Positions 797 to 62,289 of a DNA stretch of 64,000 nucleotides are shown in pieces. The notes below the pieces were generated by a model. That model was not told where the DNA came from and did no database searches. It worked only from the letters and a program-made list of their open reading frames with translations. The translations under genes were made by a program, and so were the position numbers. The stretch is from Rhodothermales bacterium (GTDB lineage Bacteria > Bacteroidota > Rhodothermia > Rhodothermales > Bin80), in contig OZ241874.1 of NCBI GenBank assembly GCA_965203305.1, positions 1,968,976-2,032,975 on the forward strand, read 5' to 3'. The first letter of the stretch is position 1. Each line of letters begins with the position of its first letter.

Positions 797-2355
797 ACCT
801 GACGATTGACTTCTCCTGCGGGCGGAAACTCATTGAGTCCCTGTTGAAGAAATGGTTTGAGGTTCCAGATAGAGAGTAAACATTCCTGATCAACTACTAC
901 CGACTTCAGATTTCTTCCGCTTGGCTAGTCTCAATTCTGACATACCTCATTCAGAATGCACAACGAGTTTGTCAGCGTGTTACTACCTTGCCAGAAGAGG
1001 TGCTGAGGATAGAAATCGTGCAAGTTCATACAAACGCCTCTCATATGCAAATATCCTGAAAAGACACACCAAAACAATTCACTTGAGCAGTACATGCGTG
1101 CGGAACATCTCGAAAAAACTATTCCTAAGCAATGCCGGAAACGATCTCAACTCTGGTTATTGTCCCTGGAATTATCACTGTGACATAGAAGATTCACGCT
1201 CCTTTTCAACTTCGTCTCTGACACGCTTTCCGATTCCGAACAGATATCCCCAGATCGCCTTCACTTCGCTGTTCAAGTCAAACGATTGCTTCCCAAGTCA
1301 TCAACCGATGTCTTAAGGGCCTTGTGGTCTCCTTTCATCTCAATTCTGACATTCTCCACTGCCTCAGAAATCGTTATTATGACTGAGACATCCATGTATC
1401 TTGTGAGTGCTATGTGTTGAATGAGTCCTTATGAGTTCTTGAGTGTATAGTTCCCTGATGACGTAAAAAAGCGGAAGGCAGTACCATACTGGATCGAATT
1501 GACATTAAAACCAAGGTAGCATTTTGTCTCTTCAACATACCCGTCTGTAAATTTCTAACTCTCTGGGAACTGAATATGCTCTTTGTCGCCTCGCTTAGGA
1601 TGATAGCGCCATACTTGGAATATTCTGAATTTTGAGACGGACACGAGGTATTTCAATTTTCTTTGAGGCCTCAAAAAGCTGTTAGGGGAGTAAGTTCAGG
1701 ACTCAGGGATAATCTCAAAGCAATGGCATTAAGCACTTATCCTGCCTGCAATTTCGAATAGCTTGATCTTCTAAGGGATCAACTGCTCTCTGGGGCAGAG
1801 ATGCTGATTTGATGGTACTACCACCAGTACCAAATTTTCTGTCTGTCCAAATAGTCTGGAGTTAAGAACTCCCTTTAACTTGGCCATCAGATAGTGTTTC
1901 AGGGCATAGGCAGTTTGAGTATAACATCCAACCCTCTTTATCCGTTTCAGGCTACTACGAATAATGACATGTGAAAAAAAATCCTTGCTCATATAGCCAG
2001 AGAAGGCATTTCCTCGTGCTATAGCTTGGACATATACATGCCTTTCAGCTCTCCCAAATGCGGCATTGCATCCAAGAGGAAAATTTCAATTTCATCCAAA
2101 AAGATAGTGTATGTTCAGAAATTCACAGTAACCTCAAATACGGGGGATTAAAGCGGCACACTCTCCCTCATAGCGTTCATATATGGGGCGATTCAGGGCG
2201 TTCGTTCGCTATGAGAGATTCGGGGGAATCTTGCGCGAAGATTACATGTTTGCGGGCCTGTTGATTTCATATCCCAATTCGCCGAAAATCTTCCATCTTC
2301 GTCGGGAAACATATCTCCCCAAACCCCTCATACGCCCCTAAATCCCATATATTAG

Positions 2356-3653
2356 GGAATTATCCAGTAAAATCCGCAAGTCTGGAACCGGGAGAGAGTA
2401 TTATTTCTCCAGTCCCATGTCCGGGGACTGCTCTTTTGGAGGGAAATTCCTGATGATGTATTCCCGCAGGGACGGGATCGGGGCGGAGTATAACTTCGTT
2501 GTTTCTTCCATATGGAAGACTCCCCGGCGAACCGCCTGGAAAAAGAGTTCTGCGCCTTCCCCCGCTCCGTACTCCTTGTCCAGTTGGTCCACGGCCACCT
2601 CCTGTTCTATCCCGCCTTCCCCCGAACTTGCCAGCAGTATCCGTGCAAAACTCCTGCACTCTTTCGCCGTGAAGGGACTCAGACGGTGTTTATAGTATTC
2701 CATGCGATTTGCCCGTCCTTCTTCCATGACGGAGGCAAGTCCCATGTCTGTCATCTTGTTGCCATGTTTTTTCAGGTAGGAGACGGCGGGTTCCGTATAC
2801 GATATGATGTGTTGCGCCCATCCGTATGTTTCCTGGGTGATCGCATCAATCCACGCGGTGGGGTCTCCCTGTGCTTCCCCTTCCTTTGTGAGCCAGTCTT
2901 CCACCACCGCCCTTTCTTCTTCCCTTTTCAGGGGTTCCATGTTGAACCTGGACCCAAGCAGTGGGCGGGATATGCCCAGTGCTGCAAAGGATTCGAAGGT
3001 CATCCCCAGCCCGCCCGCCAGCAGGATGACGGATTTCCCGACCCCGCCATTGTGAATCTTTTTCAGAAGAGTGCGGACAGGCTTGCGGTGCTCTTCTGGC
3101 GGACCACCGTCTTCGCCCAGATGCTGGGCCTCGTCCAGAATCAGTAGGAGTGGTTCCCCCGCTTTTTTTATCAGCCCCAGAGGGGTAGCCCTGGATGTAT
3201 CAACCACGGATGTTTTTCTGCGTTTTGCTCCCCCCTTGACCAGGTTTAAATTCAGCGTCCCCCCTCCTTCCACGGTGTGCGACACGGTTCTTTTTTCTGG
3301 CGGGAGACCAAGCGTTTCCTGCAGTTTGTCTGCATCCCACAAATCATCCGGGTCAATCTCTGCGACATGCCATCCAGCTTCCGCCGCCTTCATCCAGCAT
3401 TCGGCCAGAAGTGCTGTTTTGCCGATCCCCGGCGGGCCTTGCACGAGGAACGTGCTTCCCCCACTGGTCTCCCCGGACTTGGCCAGCAAGTCTTCGAATC
3501 TTTTCAGGATTCGTTTCCGTCCGTGGAAGTAGTCGGTGGCTCCCCGATCATAAAGTCCTTGTATCCCGCTCATTTCCTGTCGTGGTTGGTCAAAAAAAGA
3601 CTACGCTTCGGGGCAGGGTCTGTTCCCGCACTTGCGGATTTTACTGGATAAGC
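2356..3653 (-). mobile_element. AAA+ ATPase cassette, copy 1 (IR-bounded, putative mobile unit)
   Basis: TTATCCAGTAAAATCCGCAAG at 2360-2380 and its exact reverse complement at 3631-3651 (21/21). Perfect 12-nt direct repeat CCCATATATTAG at 2344-2355 and 3654-3665. Confidence 0.55.
2401..3573 (-). CDS. ORC/Cdc6-like AAA+ ATPase with C-terminal helical (wHTH-like) region, cassette copy 1
   Basis: 390-aa ORF. Walker A FLVQGPPGIGKTALL, Walker B LLLILDEAQHLG, VILLAGGLG. Four paralogs in the window. Confidence 0.85.
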   Translation of the reverse strand: MSGIQGLYDRGATDYFHGRKRILKRFEDLLAKSGETSGGSTFLVQGPPGIGKTALLAECWMKAAEAGWHVAEIDPDDLWDADKLQETLGLPPEKRTVSHTVEGGGTLNLNLVKGGAKRRKTSVVDTSRATPLGLIKKAGEPLLLILDEAQHLGEDGGPPEEHRKPVRTLLKKIHNGGVGKSVILLAGGLGMTFESFAALGISRPLLGSRFNMEPLKREEERAVVEDWLTKEGEAQGDPTAWIDAITQETYGWAQHIISYTEPAVSYLKKHGNKMTDMGLASVMEEGRANRMEYYKHRLSPFTAKECRSFARILLASSGEGGIEQEVAVDQLDKEYGAGEGAELFFQAVRRGVFHMEETTKLYSAPIPSLREYIIRNFPPKEQSPDMGLEK

Positions 3654-3780
3654 CCCATATATTAGCGGTATTATGAATTTTTGGAGGGACACTAAATAGC
3701 CAATTTCTCTCCAGATCAAGCGGCTCAAGCTCAACAATCTTGTTCGAAATATCTACTTGAATCTCTCTCAAAACTCTTCG

Positions 3781-3879
3781 GAGCCTCCTGCAAAAATCCT
3801 TTTATACCGAACCAGTATGCCTGTAAACACTCCCGGGGAATTATTATTCTCAATATTCAGAATTTTGCAAGAGAGAAGG
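3781..3879 (+). repeat. ~100-bp repeat unit with inverted CTCYTGCAAAA ends
   Basis: About 85% identical by eye to the reverse complement of 5121-5220. Bounded by CTCCTGCAAAAAT and ATTTTGCAAGAGAG. Confidence 0.7.
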
Positions 3880-3922
3880 CTTTCTTTTCCGAAGAAGTCT
3901 GGACAATCATTGAGCACTTGGC

Positions 3923-4572
3923 TTACGCTTCAACCAGAGTATCAGAGTGTTTGATCTGTGGATCAGTCTTATCATTCAGAGGCTTGGACTGCGCATTAAA
4001 ACGTCTGGTCAGATCCGCAAGAAGTTTAGCTTGCTCATCTTGATGTCTGGTCAGATCTTCAAGGTTCCCGGTCTGTTTGTCGCAGCGTTTGGTCAGATCC
4101 GCAAAGTGCTTGGTCTGTTCGTCGCAGCGTTTGGTCAGATCCGCAAAGTGCTTGGTCTGTTCGCCGCAGCGTCTGGTCAGATCCGCAAAGTGCTTGGTCT
4201 GTTCGCCGCAGCGTCTGGTCAGATCCGCAAAGTGCTTGGATTGCAATTCACATCTCTCGGTTTGTACATTAGACAAAACATCAATGCGCTTGCCGAGTTC
4301 GGTGAAGTTCTTGCTGGCTTGGAGAAGGCCCTGATTTTGCGATTCAATCACAGTGTCAATGCGCTTGCTGACCTCACGAAGGCTCTGATTAACTTACGAA
4401 AGCCCTGATTTTGCGATTCAATCACAGTGTCAATACGCTCGCTTACGGCATCAAATCGCTTGTTCACGGAAGCGTTCGTATGCCGAGATGCGATAATCAA
4501 AGTTACAATAATGCCCGAAAGGGTCACGATAGTACTTACTGAGGCTATAGTGATGGACTGTACTAGCTCCAT
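3923..4572 (-). pseudogene. Membrane-anchored protein with 14-aa tandem repeats, split by a 74-bp direct duplication
   Basis: ORFs 4348-4572 (N-terminal TM helix ITIASVSTIVTLSGIIVTLIIA) and 3923-4351 both contain IDTVIESQNQG. A 33-nt perfect repeat at 4328-4360 and 4402-4434 is spaced 74 nt (not a multiple of 3). Removing one copy joins the two frames. Confidence 0.6.
3986..4240. repeat. 42-bp tandem repeat (coding; 14-aa units ADLT(R/K)RC(G/D)EQTKHF)
   Basis: Four near-identical 42-bp units at 4070-4111, 4112-4153, 4154-4195 and 4196-4237. Degenerate units extend back to ~3986. Confidence 0.85.
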
Positions 4573-5120
4573 GAGTTCAATTCAGGTTTTGTTTTGAGTT
4601 TTTTCTGTATAATTTCGAGACTCGCAAACTGCCTAGTAACCTTCTATGCATTGTACACGAGATTGTTCCTGGCATGTTCCATACCCTGCATTTCCAATTC
4701 TGATTTTTTTTCTCCACCAGATAGTACCATATGCATGGTACAAGGTTCCAGACGCACATGTTCCCAGATCTCTGAACCATGACTTCCTATTGCAATCACA
4801 ATGTGGTAATACGCACCTCCGAATCTTTTTAAGAAGGGCACGCATAAATGGGATTCGCCGGTTCTATCCCGATAGTTATAGACAGACATCTAAATCTGGG
4901 ATGTATAGAGAGAGTGTGTTTGGAAGTACTATACAGCACATTTTGCTACACCATGTTTGGCACGAGGAGGCTCTGGCAAAATTTCCACATATTCACCTTG
5001 TCATGTCCACAAGCATTCTCAGAGCAATCACTGCCCCAATTGGGGATGCCTGCGGAAATAACAGAACTACACTAATTGGGATAGAGCCGATTCCGCCCAG
5101 ATAGAAATTGGCAGGCTTAT

Positions 5121-5220
5121 CCCCCGATCCTCTTGCAAAATTCTAGATATTGAGAATAATCAATCACTGGGAGTGTTCAAAGGCGTACCGGTTCGGTTAT
5201 AAAAGTGTTTTTGCAGGGGA
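5121..5220 (-). repeat. ~100-bp repeat unit, inverted partner of 3781-3879
   Basis: The reverse complement aligns with 3781-3879 (shared CTTTTATA.CCGAACC.GTA.GCCT.T.AACACTCCC...ATTATTCTCAATAT..AGAATTTTGCAAGAG). Confidence 0.7.
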
Positions 5221-7442: not shown

Positions 7443-10400
7443 CTACTGTACATCCACCCATTCAGTGGACAGTATCTCCGCCTGCTCAAGTACTGTTTCG
7501 GCTGCTTTTTCCTGCTTGTCTGGCGGGTAGCCATATTTTCGCAGATTCCGCTTTATCAGAGCCCTGAGGTTTGCACGAACATCCTCACGAATCGTCCAGT
7601 CAATCCTGACATTTTCCTGCACGGTTCTGACAAGTTTTCGTGCAATGTCGCAGAGCTTGTCTTCCCCCATCTCCCGAACTGCACTGTCATTGGTTTCCAG
7701 TGCATCATAAAATGCCATCTCATCTTCGGACAGCCCCAGTGCTTCGCCGCGAGCGTTTGCCTCTCTCATCTCCCGTGCAAGCTCAATCAGTTCTTCAATG
7801 ATTTGTGCCGCTTCTACGGCACGATTCTGATACCGGCGGATGGTCTGTTCCAGCATTTCGGCAAAAGACCGACCCTGAACGACATTCTTTTTTCTGCGGG
7901 TTGCAATCTCCCCTTTCAGAAGTTTCCGTAGCAGCTCAACTGCAAGATTGGGCTTGTGCATATTCAGGACTTCCTTCAGAAAGTCTTCCGAGAGGATGGA
8001 CACATCCGGTTTTTTCAATCCCGCGGAGGTAAAAATATCTGTTACTCCTTCGGGCATTATGCTCCGAGAGACAATCTGACGCACCGCATGATCTATCTCC
8101 TCATCAGTCTTTCCTTCGGATGCTGCACGCTTTGACAGTGCCACTTGTACGGTCTGGAAAAATGCCACATCATCTCGTATTCGCTCAGCCTCCTCGTGTG
8201 GAACGGCCAAGGCAAACGCTTTCCTGAGCTGACGGACGACGGTTACATATCGCTCTTTGCCTTTTTCCTGTGCCAAAATATGTTCCATTGCAGCTGGCAA
8301 CAGGGCGAGTTGCTCTGACGAGGAGGCAACTTTCCAGTCAAATCCGTGAAACATATCACAGCAGATTTCATAGTTTTTGAGCAAAACCTGAACTGCCTTT
8401 TCCTTGTCCACCGTTGCATCACCTTGTCCACCGCTTTCTGTATAGTTTGCGAGTGCCTGCTTCAGTGCATAGGCTAGACCCAAATAGTCAACAATCAAAC
8501 CTCCTGGCTTCTCCTTGAATACACGATTGACTCTGGCAATAGCCTGCATCAATCCGTGGCCTCGCATTGGCTTGTCTACGTACATGGTGTGCAGGCTGGG
8601 GGCATCAAAGCCTGTCAGCCACATGTCACGCACCAGAACCATCCTGAGTGGATCTTCCGGGTCCCGAAATCGCTTTGAGAGCAGCTCTCTTCTGGATTTG
8701 TTTCGTATGTGTGGTTGCCATTTAATGGGGTCCGAAGCTGATCCGGTCATGACGATCTTTAGCTCACCTGAATTGTCATCATCGTTACACCAGTCTGGAC
8801 GAAGACGCTCCAGCTCTTTGTACAAATCAATACAGATACGCCGACTCATGCAGACCACCATTGCCTTTCCCTTCATTACCTCCAGTCGCCCTTCAAAATG
8901 GTTGACGATATCTTCCGCAATAATTGCTGTGCGCTTCTTTGCACCAACGATAGCCTCCAGTTGTGCCCACTTTGTTTTTACCTTTTCCCGGCGATTGGCT
9001 TCTTCAGCCTCCGTGACTTCCTCAAAATCGCTGTCAATGTTGGGTTTCTCGTCCTCGTTCAGCTTGAGCTTCACAAGGCGATTTTCATAATAAATCGGAA
9101 CGGTGGCACCATCATCAACGGATCTGCGGATATCATAAATGCTGATGTGATTCCCAAATACTGCGCGAGTATTGGCATCCGCATGCTCAATGGGTGTTCC
9201 GGTAAATCCAATGAATGAGGCATTGGGCAATGCGTCTCGCATATGCCGTGCATAGCCGTCAATAAAATCATACTGGCTGCGATGCGCCTCGTCGGCAATC
9301 ACCACGATATTGTGTCGGTCCGAGAGTAGCGGATGCTCTTCTCCTTTCTGATCAGGAAAGAACTTTTGAATTGTCGTGAATACAATGCCTCCTGATTTTA
9401 CGGAAAGTCTTTTTCGTAAATGTGCCCGGCTTCTCGCCCGAACAGGTGACTGACGGAGGAGATCGGAACACCGTGAAAATGTGGCAAACAGTTGATCATC
9501 CAGATCATTCCGGTCGGTCAGTACAACAATGGTCGGATTTTTCATTTCCGGTTCCCGTACGATACGACCTGCATAGAACGCCATCGTCAGGCTCTTGCCG
9601 GATCCCTGCGTATGCCAGACTACACCAATCCGGCGATCTCCTATATCTCCTCCATGCATCGTGTTCTCTCTGAGGGCTACTTCCCTCTGCATCTGTGTGG
9701 CACGCAGGGTTTCTTCAACAGCTACATCCACAGCATGATATTGGTGATATCCGGCCATCTTTTTGGACAGCACACCACTTCCGTCATCCTCAAACACAAT
9801 GAAGTCCCGGATTAATTTCAGAAGTCTTTCTGGCTTGAGAACACCCTCTGTCAATACCTCTAGTTGCAACTTATCCCGAGACTCCTCCTCCTCCTTCCCC
9901 GAAATCGTTCGCCATGGCTTGAACCACTCTGGTCCAGCAGTTAGCGTCCCGATACGCGCTTCTATTCCATCTGATATGATCAGAGCGGCGTTATAAGTAA
10001 AGATGGAAGGAATCTGCGACTTGTAGGTTTGCAGTTGCTGATAGGCGGACTGGACAGTCGTCCTCTCATTCGAAGGATTCTTCAGCTCCACAATGACCAG
10101 CGGCATCCCGTTGACAAACAGTACGATATCCAGCCTCCGTCTCCGTTTATTTTCTTCCACGGTAAATTGGCTGACGGCAAGCCAGTCGTTCTTGCTGTGA
10201 TCGTCAAAATCAATTAGCCGGACTTGGGCACCCCGGAAACGCTTGTCATATTCATCATAATACTCCGTCGGTACACCGTCTATGAGCATGCGGTGAAATG
10301 CATGGTTACGACTTTCCAGTGCAGAACCACCGGGGTGGTACACATCTATTTGTGCACTGATCAGAGCACTCATGGGAAGCCACGAGTTCAGCCTGTCAAG

Positions 10401-18905: not shown

Positions 18906-19043
18906 TTAAGATGTAATAACCCTGAATTCAATCCGAGCCAGTATCACCAGCAACGGCCCCCGTGTGGTCTGGACTGCTTCCTTCTGCTTTTCGTTCAGAC
19001 CATCAAGGATTTTCGCTGTATCGAATTTCTGCATCCCACTCAT
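18906..19043 (-). pseudogene. UvrD/PcrA/Rep-family helicase, N-terminal ~35-codon stub
   Basis: From the ATG at 19043: MSGMQKFDTAKILDGLNEKQKEAVQTTRGPLLVILA, the conserved N-terminus preceding Walker A in UvrD-like helicases. Similarity ends before GAGSGKT. Confidence 0.6.
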
Positions 19044-19052
19044 TTTCTTGAT

Positions 19053-20371
19053 GGAATTATCCCGTAAAATCCGCACAGGATGCAGGGAGAGAGTATTATC
19101 TCTCCAGTCCCATGTCTGTGTCCCGATCACTGTCCATACGATCTTGCCTGCGGCGTGCTTCCACCTCACGGATATGCGCAGCGCGTTCCGTCAAGTACTT
19201 GTGCAGGGACGGGATGGGGATCGTGTAGAAGCCATTTTTACGGTAGAGAACGCCTTGACTGACCACTTGTGCAAACACGGCTTCGCCCAATTTCTCCAAA
19301 AGCTCTTTTTTGGGGACATGTTCCTGCGCATTACGAAATATCTTCACCAAGCGGAGGATGTCATCGTTGTCGACCCCATACAGTCGGCCTTGATAGTATT
19401 CCATGCGTTCTTCCCGCCCTTTCTCCATGACGAGACGCAGCAACTCCGGGGTCATCACCCCATCGTTCGCGTAGACCAAGTGGGCGGCATTCCGTGCATA
19501 GGAATCTACATGCCTGGGCCACAAATACGTCTCTTGGGTGATCGCATTGATCCAGTCTGTGGTGTCCCCTTTTGCTTTCCCTGCCCTTTTGAGCCAGTTC
19601 TTGATCACCTGCCGTTCCTCCTCCTCTTCCAGTGGTTTCATATCAAAATGGCATTGAGCTGCCATCCTGGATATCCCCAGTGCTTTGAATGCGGCATGGG
19701 TCATCCCCAGTCCACCCGCCAGCAGGATCACGGGCTTCCCCAACTCTCCATTGTGAATCTCCGTCAGAAGATCGCTGACCTCGTCTTTGTACGGTCCATT
19801 GATATTTTTGCTTTCTCCCATACGCTGGGCCTCGTCCAGAATCAAGAGGAGCGGGTCCTTTATTTTCTGGATCAGGCTCTTGGGGGTGACCTTCGGAGTG
19901 GCTTTTTTTGTCGTCCGTGATAGCCCCCCTTCGAGGGATGCCCCAAAGTATTTCACTTTCCCGCCACCCCCGATGGTTTTTTCTGTGGCGACCTCTTTTT
20001 TCTTCAGCCCCAGGCATTCCGCCATCAAGTCCGGATCCCACAGGGCCGTGACAACAAGTTTTCGGACCTCCCACTTCTCTCTCTTTGCCTTCTTCCTGCA
20101 TTCGTCCAGCAGGGCCGTTTTGCCGATCCCCGGCGGCCCTTGCACAAGGAAGATGGTCCCTTCGTTATTTTCTTTGTCATCCACCAGCCTGTTCTCAAAG
20201 CTGTCCAGTATGGGGGTGCGCCCGTGGAAGTAGGGGGTGGCTCCACGGTCTGTGGATTTTCGAAGCGGATCCATGGTTCCTGTCGTGGTTGGTCAAAAAA
20301 GACTACCCTTCGGAGCAGGGTTTGTTCCCCTATTGCACCCCTTGCGGATTTTACGGGATAACTCCCAATAA
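19053..20371 (-). mobile_element. AAA+ ATPase cassette, copy 2
   Basis: TTATCCCGTAAAATCCGCA at 19057-19075 and CTTGCGGATTTTACGGGATAA at 20341-20361 (19-nt perfect IR). GATGG occurs on both sides (19050-19054, 20372-20376). Confidence 0.55.
19096..20274 (-). CDS. ORC/Cdc6-like AAA+ ATPase, cassette copy 2
   Basis: 392 aa. FLVQGPPGIGKTALL, LLLILDEAQRMG, VILLAGGLG, IPIPSL. C-terminus DTDMGLER. Confidence 0.85.
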   Translation of the reverse strand: MDPLRKSTDRGATPYFHGRTPILDSFENRLVDDKENNEGTIFLVQGPPGIGKTALLDECRKKAKREKWEVRKLVVTALWDPDLMAECLGLKKKEVATEKTIGGGGKVKYFGASLEGGLSRTTKKATPKVTPKSLIQKIKDPLLLILDEAQRMGESKNINGPYKDEVSDLLTEIHNGELGKPVILLAGGLGMTHAAFKALGISRMAAQCHFDMKPLEEEEERQVIKNWLKRAGKAKGDTTDWINAITQETYLWPRHVDSYARNAAHLVYANDGVMTPELLRLVMEKGREERMEYYQGRLYGVDNDDILRLVKIFRNAQEHVPKKELLEKLGEAVFAQVVSQGVLYRKNGFYTIPIPSLHKYLTERAAHIREVEARRRQDRMDSDRDTDMGLER

Positions 20372-20622
20372 GATGGTGGAGAGATACCATCAATGAAAAG
20401 ATATATCTGGCATGCAAAAATAGAGATTATTATTGGTTTTCCAGCTCCATCCACAGAATATGTCCATGCAGATCTTGCCTCGTATGCTTTTCCACCAAGT
20501 TCGCCAAACTTATCTAGCCATGTGGTCGTGACTTCTTCCCATGCAGGGGATTTGCATCCAGCAAAATAAACAGTGAGCGTTGCAGTGATCAGGATCAGTG
20601 CTTTTGAATAGACTCTATTCAT
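20293..20622 (-). CDS. Small lipoprotein whose 3' end now reads into cassette copy 2
   Basis: Start at 20622: MNRVYSKALILITATLTVYFAGC (lipobox). The last ~27 codons are encoded by the cassette end, including the IR (20341-20361) and leader. Confidence 0.45.
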   Translation of the reverse strand: MNRVYSKALILITATLTVYFAGCKSPAWEEVTTTWLDKFGELGGKAYEARSAWTYSVDGAGKPIIISIFACQIYLFIDGISPPSYWELSRKIRKGCNRGTNPAPKGSLF

Positions 20623-20638
20623 TTCAGGAGAGGAAGGA

Positions 20639-20939
20639 TGCCTATTCCAATCAATTGGGCCGGTGAATCCAATTTTATTGGGCCACCCGTTCGGCATGTT
20701 TGGGATAGTGTTCATGACTCGGCAGATTGGGGCTGTAATTCTTGTTCTCCTTTGATCTTTCGCATGGACTCTCCGGTTAACGGAATGCGGTGTGCATTGT
20801 TGACGAGGCGATCCAGAATGGCATCCGCCAATGTGGGATTTTCCATGGTTTCATGCCACTTGTTGACCGGATACTGACTGGTGACAATGGTAGAGCACCA
20901 TACCCCTGAGAAAAAAACCTCCATCAATGAGAATCGCAA
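20639..20939 (-). mobile_element. IS21-family right-end remnant (istB 3' fragment plus terminus)
   Basis: Translation ...[53 protein letters not shown] resembles the IstB C-terminus. The ~75 nt after the stop, ending TG at 20639, recur inverted at 37845-37922. Confidence 0.65.
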
Positions 20940-21375
20940 CCCTAGTCATTCAGAAAAATTTTGCACGCTAAAAGCCTCAAATGTTTAGATCACTCGGAAT
21001 TTCCCATGGGCACTAGTAAGAGCCTCTTGCAAAAGTAGCATTTTAGAACGTTCAACCCATTTCTGAGGCCCAGGCTTCCTTGATTCTTGCCAAGTCCGGT
21101 TTGCGTCGGATTCTTTGTGCAGAACCGAGAGGTCTTCTTCGCCTGTCAAGAGGAGATGTTGGATACAATCCAAAACGTGAGTTTTCCATGACATAGTTCA
21201 ACAATCGGACACAACTTCCAGAGAGAGTATATAATCCTCTGCATCCGTGTATGTCAAATGGCATGGGATCATATTCTTGCAAGATTTGATGATAATCCGC
21301 CACCCCAAAACGCTCAATTGTTGTGTTGTAACATGGTAATCCCCTTACTCCATATACCTCCCGATATTAGTATCA

Positions 21376-24118: not shown

Positions 24119-24585
24119 GTGAGATCCAATCTACGCAGGATTGTCCACAGCTAATAAGCCCCGGTAATCCTTTGGGAATTCACATTGACCATAGAACGGG
24201 CAGCGGAGAATGCCTTCTGCAAACAGAGCCTCTTGCAGAAATACTTTGGTAAAGGACCATGCATACTTGCAAGCACTTTCAGGGGACCGAATCTCCGCCA
24301 ACTTGATATTTTTGCAGAAACCTCTACTGCTCATTACTGAAGTTACCCCCTGGTATATAAGCCCCTCAGGTGAGCGAACAGGAATTCCCTGCCCTGCATA
24401 TCCGAGAATATCGTCTGGCATTGATGAATCTGTTTTTCGGTTAGTTTTCGACAGTCAAACACAGGAATCTGTGATAACATGGACAGAACAACATCAGACC
24501 TCCCCATTTGCTGTCGGCTGCCAATATCCCAAAACAGGATAATCTTCAATGTTGAATCAGACCAGAGAATGCGAACAATGAGAGA

Positions 24586-25918
24586 TTACCTCTCCATTCC
24601 CATATCTGTGTTTTGCCCCTTGTCCGGGTCGTCTTTGCTCTGTGAGATTCCTGTTCTGGTTTGATTTTTCCCTCCTCTTTTTCGGGAAATGGGCTGTCTG
24701 CTTTATGATTCTCTGGTTCCTTTGGGGGAGACTCTTTTCCTGTTTCTTCCCCAGAAACCTGTTTCAAATGGGACTGTTCCCGGGCTGTGAGCTCCTTCTC
24801 CGCCAGCCATTCCCGTATCATGTAGTCGTGGAGAGAGGGGATCGGAATGATGTATCTCCGCCCCTTCTTGTGCAGAACGCCCTTTGACAGGGCCCGATCA
24901 AATCCACCTTCCCCAATCGCCCGCTTGATCTCCTCATCTGTCAGTCCAATCTCCAGCGAAACATGCTGAAACAATTCCGCCAGTCCATTGAATTCATTAT
25001 ACGTCAAGTCTTCCGTCCGGCCACGGTAGTATTCCCTGCGGTTTACCCGCCCCTGCTCCATGACGATACGCAACCCCTCCGCGGTCATCTCCCCCTCGGA
25101 TTTCTTTAAGTACTCCAGGGCAGGGTCCAGGTAGGACGCGATGTGGTGCCCCCACCCGTGTGTCTCTGCTGTGATGGCATTCATCCAAGCAGTGATGTCC
25201 CCCTTCGCCTTCCCCTCCTCTGTGAGCCAGTCCTTGATCACCCCTCGTTCCTCCGCTCTGGAGAGTGCCTCAAGATTGAAATAGCAGTTGCTCTTGAACC
25301 GGGATATGCCCAGCACTCCCTCAAATACAGACCGGGTATTCCCTAGTCCACCAACCAGTAATACCAAAGGCCTGTCCATCTTCCCATTGTAGATATAGTC
25401 TAGAAGGGAGGTTGCCAATTCTTGTTTTCCCGCAGGGATGAGGGTCGGACTTCCAAATCGCTGTGCCTCATCAAGAATCAGCAGGAGCGGGGCATCTTTG
25501 CTCTGAAGAGCCTTGATAGGGGTGGATGCATCTCTGTCCAGATCAAGCGATATCCCTAGAGAGGCAATATCTATTTCGACCTCTGCGGAGATTCTTTTTA
25601 ATCGACGTTTGGCTTTCCCCAGACATTCCCACAGAATATCTGTGTCCCAGAGTGCCCCTGGTCTGATCTCTGCGGTGCCCCAGCCTTTCTCCTCCGCCCA
25701 TTTTCTGCACTCCGCCAGGAATGCGGTTTTGCCCACACCTGGGGGCCCTAGACCAGGAAACAGGAACCCTTCTTTCCAGGGCTGGACCGGAATAATAACC
25801 GCAGAAAGTACTTCTTCTCGTTTTCCCGCCCGTGGAAGTATCTTGTCTCCCCGCGGTCGTCAATAATTTCTCCTTCTGGAAGTGGCTTGTCCTGATCGGG
25901 AAGTTTTGTGCGGAACAT
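24586..25918 (-). pseudogene. ORC/Cdc6-like AAA+ ATPase, cassette copy 3, decayed
   Basis: From the ATG at 25918: MFRTKLPDQDKPLPEGEIIDDRGETRYFHGRE...GSCFLV, then in-frame TAG (25748-25750) where paralogs have Q of FLVQGPPG. The frame then shifts at the following C-run; the ORF-track frame 24546-25736 continues GPPGVGKTAFL. A second frameshift near 24640-24650: the conserved end TDMGMER-TAA (stop 24586-24588) is in another frame. Confidence 0.75.
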
Positions 25919-26094
25919 AGCGGAGACAGGAGATGGCTGGCAGAACTTTTATGCTTGGACACTCAGACACTGCTTCAGGTTCCCCCGGTTTTTGGGGCCA
26001 GGTTTGTGCAGGGCCGGGTTGGATGTCTACCCAACTGCTGAACCCAGAGAAGGGAAACGGAGCAGAAACACGCAGGGAGTCTGCCCGTTCCCAG

Positions 26095-26120
26095 CTTGCG
26101 GATTTTGCTGGATAACTCCC
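26095..26120. repeat. Right (upstream) IR arm of cassette copy 3; the left arm is missing
   Basis: CTTGCGGATTTTGCTGGATAACTCCC. No matching TTATCCAGC arm lies 3' of the copy-3 stop. Confidence 0.7.
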
Positions 26121-33733: not shown

Positions 33734-34124
33734 CCCTGGTTCCGCTCTGCAGCAGACTTTCTCTCCTGTCGTATTTCCGTGTAGTACTTCTCTGATGGAA
33801 TGGCAACTCATCTGCATGTACATTAGCGGACGGAGTGAGCTTCATCCGATTCACACAGTGTGCCCCGTCTGAATGGAGCTTTCCGAAGATGAGTTTTCAG
33901 TCAGACAGTACAGATATACCCACGAAGGCAGTGAATCTCCATAAGTCTATTGACTTTGGCTTCATGGATGTCTTGACTTCGACGGTTAATTTGCGCACAG
34001 AGGCATTGGAGGGCGATTTTCACGAAAACTGAACACTACAATTCAGAGATCGAAAAACCCTGTCCGTAACGCACGGAAATACAAGTTTCTACCGAAATGT
34101 CAAACCAAAACCGTCGAAGTCACC

Positions 34125-35333: not shown

Positions 35334-35809
35334 TCATTGTCCAAGCACTGCCCTCAGACTGTCCCCACACCTCATCATCCTAATAGTTTCTCTACACTCA
35401 TGGAATCCGATCCTGTTACGCCTCAGTTTCTTGAGCTGGTGTTTGTTTCGTTTGCCGCAGACTACAACAGGCTTGAACTGGAATCCTTGTGCTTCGCTTG
35501 AAAAGATGAACTTCTCAGCAACAGAAGCACCTGCCTGAAATTGCTGAATGACCTTACTTGCGTCCAACCTCTACGCTTCAGTTCAATGACCACCCAGCCG
35601 CTCATATCCTTACTTTTTCCTCTAGTAACCAGAAGGTAGTCACAGCGCGTCATGTCTGTTGCCAATGGCGAGCCGGACCTGTCAAAATCAACAACAATAC
35701 GATCAGATACGCCAGCCATCACCACTTTACATCCGTCCTTGTTCAGCCCGCCACTTACCAGACATGCCTCATCAAACCTTTGGCTGATGTCATCCAATGA
35801 TTCCATCAC
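35334..35809 (-). pseudogene. Small PD-(D/E)xK-like protein, frameshifted
   Basis: ORF 35462-35809 carries CDYLLV...VVIELKRRG (D...ExK pattern). The sequence continues in another frame as ORF 35334-35567 (DASKVIQQFQAGA...). The GTG start overlaps the ATPase stop (GTGA). Confidence 0.45.
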
Positions 35810-37371
35810 GAGTTGTTCTCAATGAGGCTTGTGATGTCAGCTGAATCGTTGTGCAGAGCATATGCAACATCATCAAAGCCAGAGGAATACAGGTTGGAAT
35901 CATCAAGGTACACCTCTTTTACAACTGTACCCTCAAGGTACTTCTCCGGTTCAAACAGCCATACACCTACTTGACCAGTATCCAGGGCTATCTCGCCGCT
36001 ACCGTTGTACCGAACTTTGGGATGTGATCGACGCACTATGTTGGCTAATTCTTCCAGCAACCATTCGCTGTGCGTGGTGACGATTACCCGAACACCGATC
36101 TTGATGAGTGCGGCAATTTCACGTATGAATTTGACCTGCATTGCCGGATGCAGATGAGATTCTGGTTCTTCCATAATCAAGACATTGCCTGGCTTAATCA
36201 CATGACGGAGATACAATACCACGGGTGCGAGCTCCGAAACCATGGAAGACGCGTTTGCCAGCGTGAGATCTTCTTCCCAGCCGCGTGGCCGATACGTGAA
36301 ATTCGGATAGTTGGCTGGTCGCGTGATGCGAATCGCTCCGTCAAGAATATTATCTTCAATGCTTCTGCCAAGATCCTGTTTGCCCTTCCGAATTGGCTCA
36401 AATCCAACTAACTGTTCGAGGAAATCTGCCAGCACCCCAGAAAGCATTGGCGTGTTAGCGGCAGGGATAATGCCCGCAGCCGATGCGCTCGCAATCAAAG
36501 CGTTGACCACCACACTGTGCGCATGCATGACACCGGTCCGGTCTGCGGGCAGGTAATAGGCGGGCGAGTGCAGGGTGCCAAACAGCGATGGTATCAGTAC
36601 ATTGCCAAGCGATGACAAAAGATCTTGGATCGCGAACAGGCGATATTCTATATCCTGATCTTTCTGGAAGAGATATAGCATGCGTTCAAGCCACTTTTCT
36701 TTCCTTCTGTCCCCGGCTCTGGGGTCAATCGGAATTGGTATCTTCTCCGGGATCATAGTTTCAAAAGCGGGGATCTCACTGAGCGAAACCGTGTGATTAA
36801 CAAAATATGGAGGATCCCCGACAGATTGCCGCATCACGAGACACGACTCCCTCACCGCCTAGTTCCTGCGAACCAGTCTGTCAATTTCGTCAACCCCGAA
36901 GCATCTGACGATTTCATGGGATAATGTATCCATCTGTTGACTAAATCCAGAGCGAAGTCTGTCAGCGAATGGAGGGGGCAGGACAATGCTGCCTTGATTT
37001 GGCGGTGAAGAATTGATCTCAATAGCATTTATTGAGCCTGACAGGGTGTTAATTTTCTCTTCGGAGATATCGCCGAACCCCCGCTCCAGTCGGGACCGCC
37101 ATCCTCCAAAAGAATGTCTCTTACCAGAGTATGTACCGTCGTTGAAAAAACGATGTAACGCATAGATCAGGATCGCCAGATAGGACTTCCCCGTATTGCT
37201 GGCCCCCACGAACACCATGAGTGGCCTCAGATCAACTTCTGCCTTGGCAATTGGTCCGAAATCCGTCACCTCAAGTTTCAGGTCTTTCTTTTCAGTCCGC
37301 TCATCAGTCTTTTTGTATTGGGCTGTCGCAGGCATGACATTAAGGTTGTTTCGGACCGTCGTTCGTGACAT
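35806..37371 (-). pseudogene. ABC-type (AAA_15/AAA_21-like) ATPase interrupted by one in-frame TAG
   Basis: ORF 36859-37371 has Walker A VFVGASNTGKSYL. ORF 35806-36855 has YYLPADRTG, Walker B VLIMEEPESHLHP and TTHS. The two ORFs share one frame, separated only by TAG at 36859-36861. Confidence 0.7.
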
Positions 37372-37744: not shown

Positions 37745-37922
37745 CCTGGATGTCTTGTCAGCAATGAACACAGAATCCAATTAACCGGAGAGTCCATGCG
37801 CAAGGTCAAAGGAGAACAAGAATTACAGACCCAAGTGTCCGAATCATGAAGACCATTGAAAACATACCGAACAGATGGCCAAATAAGATTGGATTCACCG
37901 GCCCAATTGATTGAAATAGGCA
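37745..37922 (+). mobile_element. IS21-family right-end remnant (degenerate istB 3' fragment plus terminus)
   Basis: ...[22 protein letters not shown]-stop, then ~75 nt matching the reverse complement of 20639-20715 and ending ...AATAGGCA at 37922. Confidence 0.6.
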
Positions 37923-38237
37923 CTTCCGAAACCATCCCGATTCAGGGAGTATCTGACTTGTGTCTGGCAGCATCTCGGGGTTACAGACTGAGAAGTCAGG
38001 AGTAAGGCTGGAACACTGTAAACCGCAAGGATGGGGGCCATTTCCACTCACCGTAAAGATTTGGAAATTATCCAGCAAAATCCGCATGAAGGCAGGGAGA
38101 GAGTGTTATCTCTCTATCCCCGTATCTGCGTCCCGATCACTGTCGGAAGGGTCTCTGCCCTGTGGAGGTTCCTGACCAGGATTGCCTTTTCCCTCCCCTT
38201 TTTCTGGGGAGGGACTGTCTGGAGTATGGTTTTCCGG

Positions 38238-39440
38238 CTACTCCTCGGGATCCGCCTCGGGTAACTGTCTCGGCTCCCCCTGATCCTTGGACTCCGGATG
38301 TTGCTCCGAAATCTCTTTCGGGGGAAAATTCCTTACAATGAAATTTCGCAAAGACGGGATCGGAACGGAATAACATCGTAGTTTCTTATTAAGGTAAAAG
38401 ACTCCCTTGCGTACCGCCCGCCAGAAGATTTCTTCCCCTTTCCCCATCCCATACTCTCTGTCCAGCTGTTCTATAACATCTTCCTGCTCTACAATGCCCT
38501 CCTTAGAACTTGCTGCCAGGATTCTGGCAAGGCTTCGGCACTCTTTTGCAGTGAAGTCACTCAAACGACCTTCATAGTATTCTCTGCGGTTTTTCCTCCC
38601 CTGTTCCAGGACAGACAGAAGCTCTCCCCTGGTCATCTCCCCATCGTTTTCCTTGAGATGGGCCGCAGCTGGGACCGTGTATGCGATAATGTGCTGGGGC
38701 CACCGGTAGGTCTCTTTGGCAATCGCATCCACCCAATCCGTCGTGTCTCCCTTCGCCTTCCCCTCTTCTTTGAGCCACTCTCTGATCACCGTCCACTCTT
38801 CCTCTTCTTCCAGTGGATCCAGGTTCGTGATGGATCCTAAGGAGGCACGATAGATTCCCAGACTGTTCAATGCCCTGTCTGTCGTGCCCAATCCGCCAGC
38901 TAACAGGATGACAGGCTTCCCCAGCCCGCTGTTATGAATCCGCTTCAGGAGATCTCGGACATCGTCTTTGTATCCTCCGGTTATCCTGCTGTCTTCGCCC
39001 AAATGCTGGGCCTCGTCAAGAATAAGCAGAAGGGGGGTGTCACCTATCTTGAGTATGTCTTGTGGGGTGCGGGGGTGGTGATCAACCGTGATTTTTGCTT
39101 TGCCCTTCGCAACCAGAAATTTCGTTATCCCTGCTTCACCTTCCCCGCCTGTAACCCTGATTTCGGGGCCGATCTCAAGTGTTTTCCGCAACTTGTCTGG
39201 ATCCCACAGATCTCTCGGGTCAATCTCTGCCACTTCCCACTCCTGCTCCTCTGCTATATCCCAGCATTTTGCCAGCAGAGCGGTTTTCCCCACGCCAGGA
39301 GGCCCCTGTACCAAAAATATAGTTCCGCCTTTGGATTCGCTGAACTCCTCAAGTGCCTCCCGGAACTTCGAGAGGATCGTTTCGCGTCCGCGAAAGTGTT
39401 TAGCTGCTCCTCTGTCTCGAAAGCCTTTAATCTTGCTCAT
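38238..39440 (-). CDS. ORC/Cdc6-like AAA+ ATPase, cassette copy 4 (C-terminal tail cut by in-frame TAG)
   Basis: 400 aa. FLVQGPPGVGKTALL, LLLILDEAQHLG. After TAG (38238-38240), 43 more in-frame codons reach the family-typical ...DADTGIER-TAA at 38106-38108. Confidence 0.8.
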   Translation of the reverse strand: MSKIKGFRDRGAAKHFRGRETILSKFREALEEFSESKGGTIFLVQGPPGVGKTALLAKCWDIAEEQEWEVAEIDPRDLWDPDKLRKTLEIGPEIRVTGGEGEAGITKFLVAKGKAKITVDHHPRTPQDILKIGDTPLLLILDEAQHLGEDSRITGGYKDDVRDLLKRIHNSGLGKPVILLAGGLGTTDRALNSLGIYRASLGSITNLDPLEEEEEWTVIREWLKEEGKAKGDTTDWVDAIAKETYRWPQHIIAYTVPAAAHLKENDGEMTRGELLSVLEQGRKNRREYYEGRLSDFTAKECRSLARILAASSKEGIVEQEDVIEQLDREYGMGKGEEIFWRAVRKGVFYLNKKLRCYSVPIPSLRNFIVRNFPPKEISEQHPESKDQGEPRQLPEADPEE

Positions 39441-39607
39441 CGTTTCTTCTGGAAGTGGTTTGTCCTAGTCGGGAAGTTTTGTACAGAACATGGTGAGGAC
39501 AGGATAGCGTTGGCAGAACCTTTGGGCTTGGACACCCAGACACTGCTTCAGGTTCCCTCTATTAGGAAATTATCCAGCAAAATCTGCATGAAGGCAGGGA
39601 GAGAGTA

Positions 39608-40939
39608 TTATCTCTCTATCCCCGTGTCTGCGTCCAGATCACTGTCGGAAGGTTCTCTGCCCTGTGGAGATTCCTGACCAGGATTGCCTTTCCCCTCCCC
39701 TTTTTCAGGGGAGGGACTGTCTGGAGTATGGTTTTCCGGCTCCTTCTCGGGATCCGCCTCGGGTAACTGTCTCGGCTCCCCCTGATCCTTGGACTCCGGT
39801 TGTTGCTCCTGAATCTCTTTCGGAAGATAATTTTCTAACAGCCAGTCCCGCATGGACGGGATCGGGACAGAGTAGTTCCCTTCCTCATCGTAGTAAAACA
39901 CCCCCTTCTTCACGGACAGAAAAAATAGCTCCTTTGCTTTCTCCTCCCCATACTCTCTTGTGAGATGCGCAAGAATCTCTGTCTTTGTTAGCCTCCCGTC
40001 TTTGGGAACACCTCCTATGATCTGAGCAAAACTGGTTCTTTCTTCAGAAACAAATTCCGACATCCGCCCTACATAGTATTCTCTGCGGTGTTTACGCCCC
40101 TGTTCCAAGACAGACAGCAACCCCTCCTCTGTCATCTCCCCGCCGTCTTCTCTGAGATGGGCTGCGGCTGGCACCGTGTATGCGATAATGTGCTGGGGCC
40201 ACCTGTAAGTCTCTCTGGCAATCGCATCCACCCAATCCGTCGTGTCTCCCTTCGCCTCCCCCTCTTCTCTGAGCCACTCTCTGATCACCGTCCGCTCCTC
40301 CTCTTCTTCCAGTGGATCCAAGTTCGTGATGGATCCGAAGGAAGAGCGAGAGACCCCCAGACTGTTCAATGCTCTGTCTGTCGTGCCCAATCCACCAGCT
40401 AACAGGATGACAGGCTTCCCCAGCCCGCTGTTATGAATCCGCTTCAGGAGATCTCGGACATCGTCTTTGTACCCTCCCGTTATCCTGCTGTCTTCGCCCA
40501 AATGCTGGGCCTCGTCAAGAATCAACAGAAGGGGGGTGTCGCCTATCTTGAGTATGTCTTGTGGGGTGCGGGGGTGGTGATCAACCGTGATTTTTGCCTT
40601 GCCCTTCGCAACCAAAAATTTCGTTATCCCTGCTTCCCCTTCCCCGCCTGTAACCCTGATTTCGGGGCCGATCTCAAGTGTTTTCCGCAACTTGTCTGGA
40701 TCCCACAGATCTCTCGGGTCAATCTCTGCCACTTCCCACTCCTGCTCCTCTGCTATATCCCAGCATTTTGCCAGCAGAGCGGTTTTCCCCACGCCAGGAG
40801 GCCCCTGTACCAAAAATATAGTTCCGCCTTTGGATTCGCTGAACTCCCCAAGTGCCTCCCGGAACTTCGAGAGGATCGCTTCGCGTCCGCGAAAGTGTTT
40901 CGCCGCTCCTCTGTCTCGAAAGCCTTTAATCTTGCTCAT
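39608..40939 (-). CDS. ORC/Cdc6-like AAA+ ATPase, cassette copy 5
   Basis: Start taken at MSKIKGFRDRG (40939) by analogy with copy 4. First ~205 aa are ~99% identical to copy 4. Long acidic/Pro-rich tail ending DADTGIER. Confidence 0.8.
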   Translation of the reverse strand: MSKIKGFRDRGAAKHFRGREAILSKFREALGEFSESKGGTIFLVQGPPGVGKTALLAKCWDIAEEQEWEVAEIDPRDLWDPDKLRKTLEIGPEIRVTGGEGEAGITKFLVAKGKAKITVDHHPRTPQDILKIGDTPLLLILDEAQHLGEDSRITGGYKDDVRDLLKRIHNSGLGKPVILLAGGLGTTDRALNSLGVSRSSFGSITNLDPLEEEEERTVIREWLREEGEAKGDTTDWVDAIARETYRWPQHIIAYTVPAAAHLREDGGEMTEEGLLSVLEQGRKHRREYYVGRMSEFVSEERTSFAQIIGGVPKDGRLTKTEILAHLTREYGEEKAKELFFLSVKKGVFYYDEEGNYSVPIPSMRDWLLENYLPKEIQEQQPESKDQGEPRQLPEADPEKEPENHTPDSPSPEKGEGKGNPGQESPQGREPSDSDLDADTGIER

Positions 40940-41598
40940 CGTTTCTTCCAGAAGTGGTTTGTCCTGGTCGGGAAGTTTGTACGGAACATGGTGAGGACAG
41001 AAGAGCACTGGCAGAAATCTTAGGGTTGGACACCCAGACACTGCTTCAGGTTCCCCCTATCAGGAAATTATCCAGCAAAATCCGCATGAAGGCAGGGAGG
41101 GAGTGTTATCCCTCATTGTTCGCCTTCCTTGTCCTAATTCAACATTGCGGATTATCCTGTCCCCTCTCCTGATGTATATGAATCCTCTGCGAAAGGAATT
41201 GGACCGGAGACTGTTACGCGAAGTGTTTGATTCATGGGAGGATTGCAGAAATTGCGCGGAGGTATGGTACAAGGAACCGCTTGTACATGCGGGAAAAGAA
41301 GGTTGGGATAAAGGACTTCTATCCTAATCTGAACGTTTCATGTCAGGGGTTGGAAGATACCTGTTCCGGGCTTGCGAATTTTGCTGGATAAGTCCCAAAG
41401 ATTTCTGGCAACTGACTGACTCCTTGACTCAGTTCTCGGAACAGTCTGATCCATTTTCCTCTGCAATTTGCGGGGAGATCGTCCTTCTCTGCTCCTGTTA
41501 CTGACTCTCTGTGTAACATGCGCATCATTGACGCATGTTTTCGGAGTGACGGGGAAAGGGCATGGATCACATGCTGATCCATGAAAGCTGCTCCCCAG

Positions 41599-61537: not shown

Positions 61538-62289
61538 AAAAATACAGAAATCGGCGAATGAATATCATCTTCTACAAATGAAGCAGTACATATGATCTTT
61601 GAACACCTTCCAAATCAGCCCTTATAGAGATTTCACAGCCCTGGTCTTCGTGGAATGAAATTCCTGCTGGCTTCACCTACAGGCAGAAAAGTAACCTGCA
61701 GAGTTGAACCCTGACATAAGGGCCCTGATACTTCCTCTCTCGCAGAGCAAATTTTTGTTCGCAGAATTACGGGGCTGGCATGGGCGCGTATTCTGACTAC
61801 TTCTTTTCTGTTGAAAAGTGGCAGAACCCGTGTTATGGCTGTTGGGCTGATTTTGACGCTTCTCTTTGATGCATTTTCCGTACAAACCTCATATGTACAG
61901 AAGTTATGGAGAATCATGCGGGACAGATTCATAAATCTTTCCAGACTGGGGTAACCATGATTGCAAATTTATAAGTTCTATCCCGATTCGCGTTATTTTA
62001 CTATTTCCAGAGGCTGGTACCCCCGAGTGTTTAGATGCTTGGTACCGGTGATCAGCATGCTCTGATGGATCGTATGTGGAAGTTCCCGCAGACCTCCCCA
62101 ATCAGGGCAGTGGTTGCTCTGAGAATGCTTATAGGCATGGGAAAGCGGATATGCGGGAATTTTTCAGAGTCTTTTCGTGCCAAGATCAACCCGCCGAAAT
62201 ATGCTGTACGGTGCTTCCATACAGCACCTCTCTACAAAGCCTACATTTAGACCTCATATACATAACAATCGGAACAGAACCGGATTTTA

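Follow-up and report, generated by a model that had tools for sequence, protein, structure and literature searches.

How does a transposable unit come to carry three copies of one of its ends and only one of the other? The question is raised by a block at positions 38055–41404 of a 64,000-nt stretch of DNA (hereafter the window) from contig OZ241874.1 (assembly GCA_965203305.1, positions 1,968,976–2,032,975), which belongs to an uncultured, probably sponge-associated, Rhodothermales-like bacterium. The block holds two ATPase genes, the fourth and fifth of five ATPase copies in the window. A preliminary description, made from the sequence alone, proposed one-ended or read-through replicative insertion, or else site-specific recombination, as the origin of this arrangement. 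We find that the block is a single insertion of a composite, non-autonomous element resembling an insertion sequence (IS). Within this cargo-carrying element the internal gene unit is tandem, its number having probably been changed by homologous recombination and gene conversion.

The block is composed of the features listed below; here and throughout, L-numbers denote loci fetched from other contigs and P-numbers denote ATPase homologs.

38055–38062, plus strand: left copy of the target-site duplication, AAAGATTT, read from the sequence; it is the outer part of an inverted-repeat pair and equals 41397–41404.
38063–38086, plus strand: outer left end (IRL), GGAAATTATCCAGCAAAATCCGCA, at which the composite element truly terminates; it pairs with the right end at 41373–41396.
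38095–38116, plus strand: stop hairpin of unit 4 (GGGAGAGAG-TGTTAT-CTCTCT), a weak structure with the in-frame stop of the untruncated gene (TTA on the plus strand, 38106–38108) in its loop.
38238–39440, minus strand: ATPase copy 4, 400 amino acids, AAA+ with a predicted C-terminal winged helix, module type A (open reading frame [ORF], Pfam AAA_16, alignment and unit comparison).
39441–39564, minus strand: long leader of unit 4 with conserved blocks GAACCTGAAGCAGTGTCTGGGTGTCC and TTCCGTACAAAACTTCCCGA, shared with copy 3, L082, L083, L085 and L086.
39565–39616, plus strand: internal left end and stop hairpin of unit 5; the terminus adjoins leader 4, and junction 1 reads ...CTCTATTA followed directly by GGAAATTATCC.
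39608–40939, minus strand: ATPase copy 5, 443 amino acids if counted from ATG 40939, with a type B module; its ortholog in the closest relative is P0002.
40940–41062, minus strand: long leader of unit 5, from leader comparison.
41063–41114, plus strand: orphan left end and hairpin with no gene behind; junction 2 reads ...CCCTATCA followed directly by GGAAATTATCC; also present in the one-unit ortholog.
41115–41372, plus strand: spacer of ~250 nt, holding a non-conserved 74-amino-acid ORF (41103–41327); split by an IS in L082.
41373–41396, minus strand: sole right end of the block (IRR), GGGACTTATCCAGCAAAATTCGCA on the minus strand, pairing with the outer left end.
41397–41404, plus strand: right copy of the target-site duplication, AAAGATTT, equal to 38055–38062.

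A 37-nt probe, GGAAATTATCCAGCAAAATCCGCATGAAGGCAGGGAG, covering the left end and the first part of its hairpin, matched the plus strand at 38063, 39565 and 41063 with 0, 1 and 0 mismatches, respectively (0.00 matches expected in shuffled sequence), and the three 52-nt segments of end plus hairpin differ pairwise at 2–4 nt. In the opposite orientation the 19-nt core of the end occurs only once within the block, at 41373–41391, its terminus reaching 41396. The order is therefore copy 4 with its leader, left end, copy 5 with its leader, orphan end and hairpin, spacer and right end, both genes being on the minus strand, and a perfect 8-bp direct repeat brackets the whole. The preliminary description had read this anatomy correctly: three left ends with hairpins in one orientation, a single right arm, the order of the genes and the two near-identical junction sequences, both of which are exact as it quoted them. 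It had also set aside independent insertions, and these are indeed excluded by the single right end and the single target duplication round the entire block. Each repeat end contains two 10-nt sub-repeats, TTATCCAGCA / AAATCCGCAN, as read from the sequence.

In a full-length gene the hairpin loop contains the stop codon, and the end is adjoined by the codons for the conserved C-terminus, ...DSDRD(T/A)D(M/T)G(L/I)ER. Copy 4 is truncated by a GAG to TAG change at 38238–38240, and a remnant of its low-complexity tail runs on to 38109; copy 5 can alternatively be annotated as 477 amino acids from a GTG at 41041. The stability of the hairpin is only marginally above that of shuffles, and a comparison of leader and hairpin with Rfam gave no match at E≤1. 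The 74-amino-acid ORF had no match in Pfam or NCBIfam and is interrupted by an IS in the closest relative, and we do not regard it as a real gene. Positions 41063–41396 amount to a gene-less version of the element, like a miniature inverted-repeat transposable element (MITE). The first ~45 nt past the orphan hairpin (41115–41160; ATTGTTCGCCTTCC...TTCAACATTG..GATTATCCTG) are homologous to the sequence behind the hairpin of copy 3 (24530–24579; L161 12577–12625), in an orientation inverted relative to the adjacent gene, as if exchange had taken place across the palindromic hairpin.

The family to which the block belongs is characterized by terminal inverted repeats of ~24 nt and by 8-bp, mostly AT-rich, target duplications. 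Opposed ends of 24–33 nt were found at copies 1 and 2, at the array and at L083, L160, L163 and L164. The three sister copies in the window are the following:

2355–3654, minus strand: copy 1, the simple form with end, short leader, gene, hairpin and end; 8-bp duplication ATATATTA on both sides.
19052–20366, minus strand: copy 2, the simple form, without a clear target duplication; absent at the orthologous position in the relative.
24546–26120, minus strand: copy 3, with right end, ~100 nt, degenerate outward end, long leader, gene, hairpin and 45-nt module; left end not found.

Copies 1 and 2 are simple 1.3-kb units, reading left end, stop hairpin, gene, ~60-nt leader and right end. Perfect 8-bp duplications number five, namely ATATATTA (copy 1), AAAGATTT (the array), ATAAGTTA (L160), and ACCCCAAG and TAAAAAAG (both L164), and imperfect ones were seen at L083 (6/8) and at composite B of L164 (7/8). 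Copy 1 has a paralogous empty site, a 75%-identical L085 sequence that is uninterrupted across the insertion point, and in L164 one element is nested within the ATPase gene of another. Because of these perfect duplications, the empty site and the nested insertion, the members of the family are real transposable units. Of the features by which ISs are recognized they possess the terminal inverted repeats and the duplications with an empty site, and lack the transposase gene of an autonomous IS; an element of this kind must therefore be moved in trans. IS-type ends and a duplication round a passenger gene other than a transposase are features that the family shares with mobile insertion cassettes.

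Several details of the individual copies may be recorded here. The target of copy 1 is a ~300-nt repeat family, "X" (~75% identity between copies), represented at 2107–2354 plus 3655–3760, at ~1600–1660 and at L085 9560–9860; in L085 this repeat directly adjoins a solo right end. A clean orthologous empty site for copy 2 was sought and proved uninformative, the region having been replaced in the relative: window positions 18946–21221 (2.3 kb with copy 2, a small ORF and an IS21 relic) correspond to 529 unrelated nt (L161 15903–16431), a replacement and not a clean indel. The frame of copy 3 (24546–25860) is broken near the Walker A region; its ortholog (L161 11233–12600) is intact and encodes 455 amino acids. 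In L164 7157–10425 the arrangement is mirrored, in a composite of three right and two left ends flanked by CTTGCAA(A/G); its nested element (7917–9396) has the duplication TAAAAAAG, and the host element is joined through its right end alone into a third gene fragment. L083 8200–9960 comprises a simple element (8374–9895, flanks TTTATTTG / TTTACATG) within the 3' end of another ATPase gene fragment; an 11-nt end stub connects this fragment to the long leader of P0003, which it precedes. P0003 has no hairpin or left end of its own and is followed by an IS256-family element. When public metagenome contigs were scanned for the 19-nt end core, 73 single matches were obtained, each in an unrelated gene; neither an ATPase nor a pair was among them.

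The array was compared with its counterpart in the closest relative, ENA contig ctg6977_145x_c (3.67 Mb), in which the flanks of the array locus are 97.3–97.9% identical to those in the window. Its locus, L082, has the order right end, same spacer (split by an IS4-like element), same orphan left end with hairpin, leader, one ATPase gene and left end; the gene, P0002, resembles copy 5. Since this one-unit ortholog already possesses the orphan end and the joint between end and leader, the joint predates the two-unit array, and the number of units differs between close relatives. Variation in array length, which the preliminary description had suggested looking for, is thus present. Its view that one break point in the leader had been used twice does not follow: the second joint was most simply copied with the duplicated unit. 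Nothing demands the one-ended or read-through replicative transposition that it also offered, and in the window and the fetched loci no dedicated recombinase is present for the site-specific recombination that it envisaged.

Beside the array, the same locus in the relative contains an inserted ~170-nt MITE-like derivative of the IS4-like element (L082 11705–11875 and 9640–9760; ends CCTGACTTCGAC...), and a related copy lies at 33976–34122 of the window. At 35806–37371 of the window (minus strand) an AAA_15/AAA_21 ATPase gene (PD-T4-4_A/AriA/GajA-like according to PADLOC) is split into ORFs of 170 and 349 amino acids; its counterpart in the relative is a single gene of 521 amino acids (L082 13530–15095) with ISL3 copies on both sides. 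That the source is Rhodothermales-like is indicated by its NadA, which shares 75–77% identity with proteins of named Rhodothermales, and by sorting domains of the type IX secretion system encoded at neighboring loci in the closest relative.

A three-way alignment of unit 5, unit 4 and the unit of the relative revealed a mosaic. Within the winged-helix block (~350 nt, approximately residues 258–375, comprising the winged helix and the preceding helix) the relative is 96–100% identical to copy 5 and 48–72% identical to copy 4, whose type of winged-helix module is also found in other paralogs. Against the relative, copies 4 and 5 have changes in common over the ATPase core and tail (24 and 20 sites), and some 150-nt stretches are identical; at the terminal hairpin and end it is copy 4 that the relative matches. 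Judged from the alignment, such a mosaic would be expected from gene conversion and unequal crossing-over among paralogs, and gain in the window and loss in the relative both fit it.

Arrays are not restricted to elements with ends. Same-strand tandem arrays of two to five ATPase genes occur in many related loci and metagenome-assembled genomes (MAGs), and those at L030, L034 and L007 have no inverted repeats. In these three (L030 1–9002, L034 2500–6600, L007 3700–6700) the units are 98–100% identical except for a sharp block of 37–60% identity at the winged-helix region, the counterpart of which in the window is 38300–38700 versus 39800–40200; overall, the blocks are ~200–350 nt long with 37–72% identity, which suggests a cassette-like exchange of a specificity domain. 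A search of other genomes, another of the checks proposed at the outset, has therefore yielded the same mosaic in relatives lacking such ends, so the tandem, module-swapped layout arises without transposon ends. This is the strongest argument for ordinary homologous recombination over a transposition pathway. As a copy-number-variable array is typical of this sponge-symbiont gene family, the block provides no evidence for a new mode of transposition.

The long-leader subtype, to which the array belongs, has three ends, namely one right, one left and an additional internal one that faces outward, and direct repeats stand on either side of its gene unit. Wherever the long leader occurs, an outward-facing end stands before it with its exact terminus, 8–10 nt upstream of GGGAACCTGAAG. 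This joint is present at both array junctions, in L082, in L083 (as the 11-nt end stub only), in L085 (with right-end-type sequence behind) and in L086 (with other sequence behind), and copy 3 and its intact ortholog have a degenerate joint ~100 nt inside a normal right end. That the boundary between end and leader is special, as the preliminary description had claimed, is thus borne out at L083, L085 and L086 as well. The 6–8 nt beside the terminus at the joints (TGATAGGG, TAATAGAG, TGAATAAG, TGTAAAGA) are AT-rich like the true target duplications. Since the terminus is base-exact, the first joint was probably made by a transposase; an element may have inserted beside a resident copy, after which recombination removed the duplicated right end. 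The mirror-image product is seen in L164, with extra right ends and a 7/8 duplication round the composite. The joints at different loci may have arisen independently at a hot spot, or they may all go back to a single ancestral joint. In a Paracoccaceae locus with a ~26% identical ATPase (L056 3732–5457), the order is repeat, 81 nt, inverted repeat, ~70 nt, gene and inverted repeat; here the three-repeat topology is built of an unrelated 21–50-nt repeat (GGGTGCGTTCCAAATTTTTG...), and a target duplication is not evident.

We propose that in the long-leader subtype the extra outward-facing end directly upstream of the 120-nt leader would have left the unit between direct repeats of 52 nt, hairpin included. 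Unequal homologous recombination between these repeats, or later between whole 1.5-kb units, would then shift the number of units, giving one in the relative and two in the window, while gene conversion with paralogs would keep the ATPase core near-identical and swap the winged-helix module. The mirror structure of L164 could have resulted from nested insertion and subsequent recombination between homologous genes.

Several observations weigh against this proposal. No recombination intermediate or population heterogeneity was observed, and the mechanism is inferred from its end products. The leaders of units 4 and 5 differ at 16 of 125 sites (12.8%), above the ~2.5% divergence of the flanks between the two genomes; a simple recent duplication therefore does not account for the two units, and either both are old, with loss in the relative, or unit 4 (or parts of it) came from elsewhere. 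The terminus is base-exact at every joint, what lies behind the end being of three kinds (of left-end type, of right-end type or other), and transposase activity may have contributed to the building of the array as well. Furthermore, neither the 64-kb window nor ten fetched loci of the same lineage (7–21 kb each) yielded the cognate transposase.

An alternative is that each joint was made by a transposase acting in trans and that the array grew by repeated targeted transposition, not by duplication. Two routes could lead there: insertion at a hot spot upstream of a resident leader followed by loss of the right end, or an adjacent deletion caused by an end. The exact terminus 8–10 nt upstream of GGGAACCTGAAG at five loci, with varying sequence behind the end, would be accounted for, as would the AT-rich 6–8 nt by the terminus, and both nested insertions and unequal numbers of left and right ends do exist in L164. 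We nevertheless consider this alternative unlikely: the variant spacers resemble diverged copies of one ancestral joint and not independent hits, a second copy of the target duplication survives at no joint, the same mosaic arrays occur in relatives without these ends, and the joint is already there in the one-unit ortholog. Still further from what we expect is a dedicated site-specific cassette system, with end plus hairpin as the recombination site and units excised as circles and integrated beside another site, in the manner of integron cassettes or IS26 translocatable units. Neither a tyrosine or serine recombinase nor an IS26-type transposase was present in the gene tables or Pfam results for the window and the fetched loci, the hairpin is weak, and simple copies with opposed ends and 8-bp duplications bear the signature of DDE-type transposition, not that of conservative recombination. 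This improbable system would nonetheless explain why the units stand head to tail in one orientation with an identical terminal site, why an orphan site heads the array, and why three sites are arranged alike in the distant L056, whose ATPase is 26% identical and whose repeat is unrelated.

The repeats might instead be binding sites of the Orc1/Cdc6-like protein, origin-like or operator in nature, and the array a gene duplication that included its regulatory sites. Origin recognition box (ORB) elements flank archaeal origins, and the repeats flank the gene in a comparable way; the protein has a predicted Orc1/Cdc6-like fold with a winged helix, and the end repeat holds the two 10-nt sub-repeats described above. 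Against this stand the perfect duplications, the empty site and the nested insertions, all of which mark mobile ends, together with the finding that different winged-helix types share the same repeat without co-variation and that most homologs elsewhere have no flanking repeat, so we regard this explanation as very improbable. It is scarcely credible that one unit was falsely expanded to two during assembly. With 94% identity over most of their length, the units are repeats of a sort that can confuse assemblers, but the two differ in their ~350-nt winged-helix modules and in a distinguishing nonsense change, and a contig from another ENA sample is 100% identical over 6,679 nt, covering the array plus flanks. 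The contig names, moreover, appear to be in the style of a long-read metagenome assembler, which points in the same direction. Assembly error, named in the preliminary description as what could overturn it, is thereby made very unlikely.

Which enzyme mobilizes the family was approached from the elements themselves and from known systems. No transposase was found within the elements; their antisense ORFs have no Pfam domains and were rejected as hidden transposases. All ends in the window and the fetched loci adjoin ATPase genes, and a cognate autonomous IS with matching ends was not encountered in the window or the ten loci. ISL3, IS66, IS256, IS4-like and IS21 elements were considered as the cognate IS and rejected, the similarity of their ends to those of the ATPase elements being no better than that of shuffles. 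ISL3 is active beside the array in the relative (target-site duplication AAAAAACT), and its duplications are also 8-bp and AT-rich. The IS1595/Merlin group has 8-bp duplications and termini starting with GG (PMC8101967). In both respects the ATPase element matches the IS1595 family, some subgroups of which carry passenger genes. The termini of the ISNwi1 subgroup are presumably ggnnatTAT, and GGGAATTAT would fit them. A DDE_Tnp_IS1595 gene was absent from the element, the window and the fetched loci according to Pfam and the gene tables.

Two other kinds of sequence lie close to the elements. Decayed IS21-family relics at 20639–20939 (minus strand) and 37754–37925 (plus strand) consist of the C-terminal tail of istB (...LTGESMRK...) and a right end (TGCCTATT...). 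They are situated 270 nt from the right end of copy 2 and 140 nt from the left end of the array, respectively, and both are directed towards the ATPase element. A role for them was rejected, as their ends are unlike those of the ATPase element and the istB tails are decayed. Beside copy 1, at 3792–5211, is a ~1.4-kb segment with 82-nt inverted repeats (3792–3873 / 5130–5211, 80%), four 42-nt tandem repeats (3982–4233), a 70-nt direct repeat (4324–4467) and two ORFs of ~150 amino acids without a Pfam match; a related arm is located at 62083–62163.

Among described systems, mobile insertion cassettes (concept as in PMC3913671 and PMC4337579) come closest; they have terminal inverted repeats, target duplications and a passenger gene without a transposase, and are moved in trans. 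The ATPase element is alike in its ends, duplication, passenger gene and lack of a transposase. It differs in that the family comprises at least 20–30 diverged copies per genome with one kind of cargo, extra internal ends and tandem cargo units, and in that no cognate autonomous IS turned up in the window and ten loci. In arrays of the IS26 type (IS6 family), units in direct orientation share a single repeated end between neighbors, and their number changes by recombination. The ATPase array is similar in its direct orientation, its shared single end copy and its unit number, probably changed by recombination, yet the repeat is a 24–52-nt end (with or without the hairpin) and not a whole IS, there is no Tnp26-like gene, and the simple copies have opposed ends and duplications of their own. 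The (IS21)2, (IS30)2 and IS911 dimers have abutted right and left ends, 2–3 bp apart. The array shares their head-to-tail layout, but both of its junctions join leader to left end; a dimer of the IS21/IS30 type was rejected on the grounds that a right end is present at neither junction and only at 41373–41396. One-ended or rolling-circle transposition as in Tn3, IS91, ISCR or ISEcp1 is likewise not supported, since no such transposase is present and the block closes distally in a proper right end flanked by the matching duplication.

Integron cassette arrays resemble the ATPase array in that all units, each a gene with a site 3' of it, point the same way and a further site heads the array. They differ from it in that the ATPase array has no integrase and no attC-type structure, and its whole block lies within a target duplication and inverted ends. 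An integron or recombinase cassette system was rejected, no recombinase being found round the array or in the orthologous locus and the ends behaving in transposon-like fashion. With Orc1/Cdc6 and with TnsC/TniB/IstB the ATPase has in common the AAA+ domain and the predicted C-terminal winged helix, TnsC and IstB being weaker structural matches. Unlike the Orc1/Cdc6 initiators it is bacterial, multi-copy and mobile, and unlike IS21, Tn7 and Tn5053 the element has no partner transposase gene.

The ATPase is ~400–460 amino acids long across the family. In the proteins of the elements in the window, Pfam detects only P-loop domains of the AAA_16/AAA_22 type, and the matches in NCBIfam and PADLOC are likewise at P-loop level; sequence similarity to known families is confined to this region. 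PADLOC gave no full-length match to a defence system, only matches of ~20–30 residues at the P-loop to MkoA/MkoC, and membership of a defence system was rejected accordingly. An AlphaFold model (pLDDT 85, pTM 0.82) had as its top Foldseek matches 1w5t, 1w5s, 2v1u and 2qby, all archaeal Orc1/Cdc6 (E 5e-9 to 2e-7, TM ~0.5), followed by eukaryotic ORC/Cdc6 and then by RuvB, DnaA and TnsC (9g0f), with IstB also among the weaker matches. On this model the AAA+ ATPase domain is accompanied by a lid and, at the C-terminus, a winged helix, and the predicted fold of the protein is closest to that of Orc1/Cdc6. Small and unannotated, the protein family counts 347 representatives in 1.84 billion at a threshold of E≤1e-30. 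Two related genomes have an expanded set, with at least 20 and at least 30 distinct diverged clusters; other homologs are mainly from sponge-symbiont MAGs (Rhodothermales, Flavobacteriaceae, Arenicellales, Paracoccaceae and Poriferihabitaceae), and most single homologs in other genomes are without flanking inverted repeats. Alignment of the copies reveals that an identical end repeat accompanies different winged-helix types, which argues against the winged helix as a specific reader of the ends.

A bolder reading, to which we give little credence at present, is that the ATPases are not passive cargo: they would form a diversifying mobile recognition system of sponge symbionts, in which winged-helix "specificity" modules on a common motor are swapped by recombination, for example so that foreign DNAs of various kinds are recognized. 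Different phyla would have recruited transposon ends independently (L056 has the same three-end topology built from unrelated repeats), and these ends would spread and re-assort the ATPases. In a still bolder variant the ATPase itself could aid end recognition or target choice for a not yet known transposase; if so, the elements would represent a new class of two-part transposons.

A literature search returned no paper matching the element family or the ATPase arrays, and both the family and its module-swapping Orc1/Cdc6-like ATPase arrays appear to be undescribed so far. The array itself has a conventional explanation. Several identical ends and junctions need not mean repeated or one-ended transposition, because ordinary recombination can copy a junction once direct repeats exist within an element. 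The interest lies in the element family and in the swapping of winged-helix modules. IS-like vehicles whose sole gene encodes an Orc1/Cdc6-like ATPase constitute an apparently undescribed family in sponge-associated, Rhodothermales-like bacteria, for which the ATPase could serve in defence, as a transposition helper or in DNA recognition.

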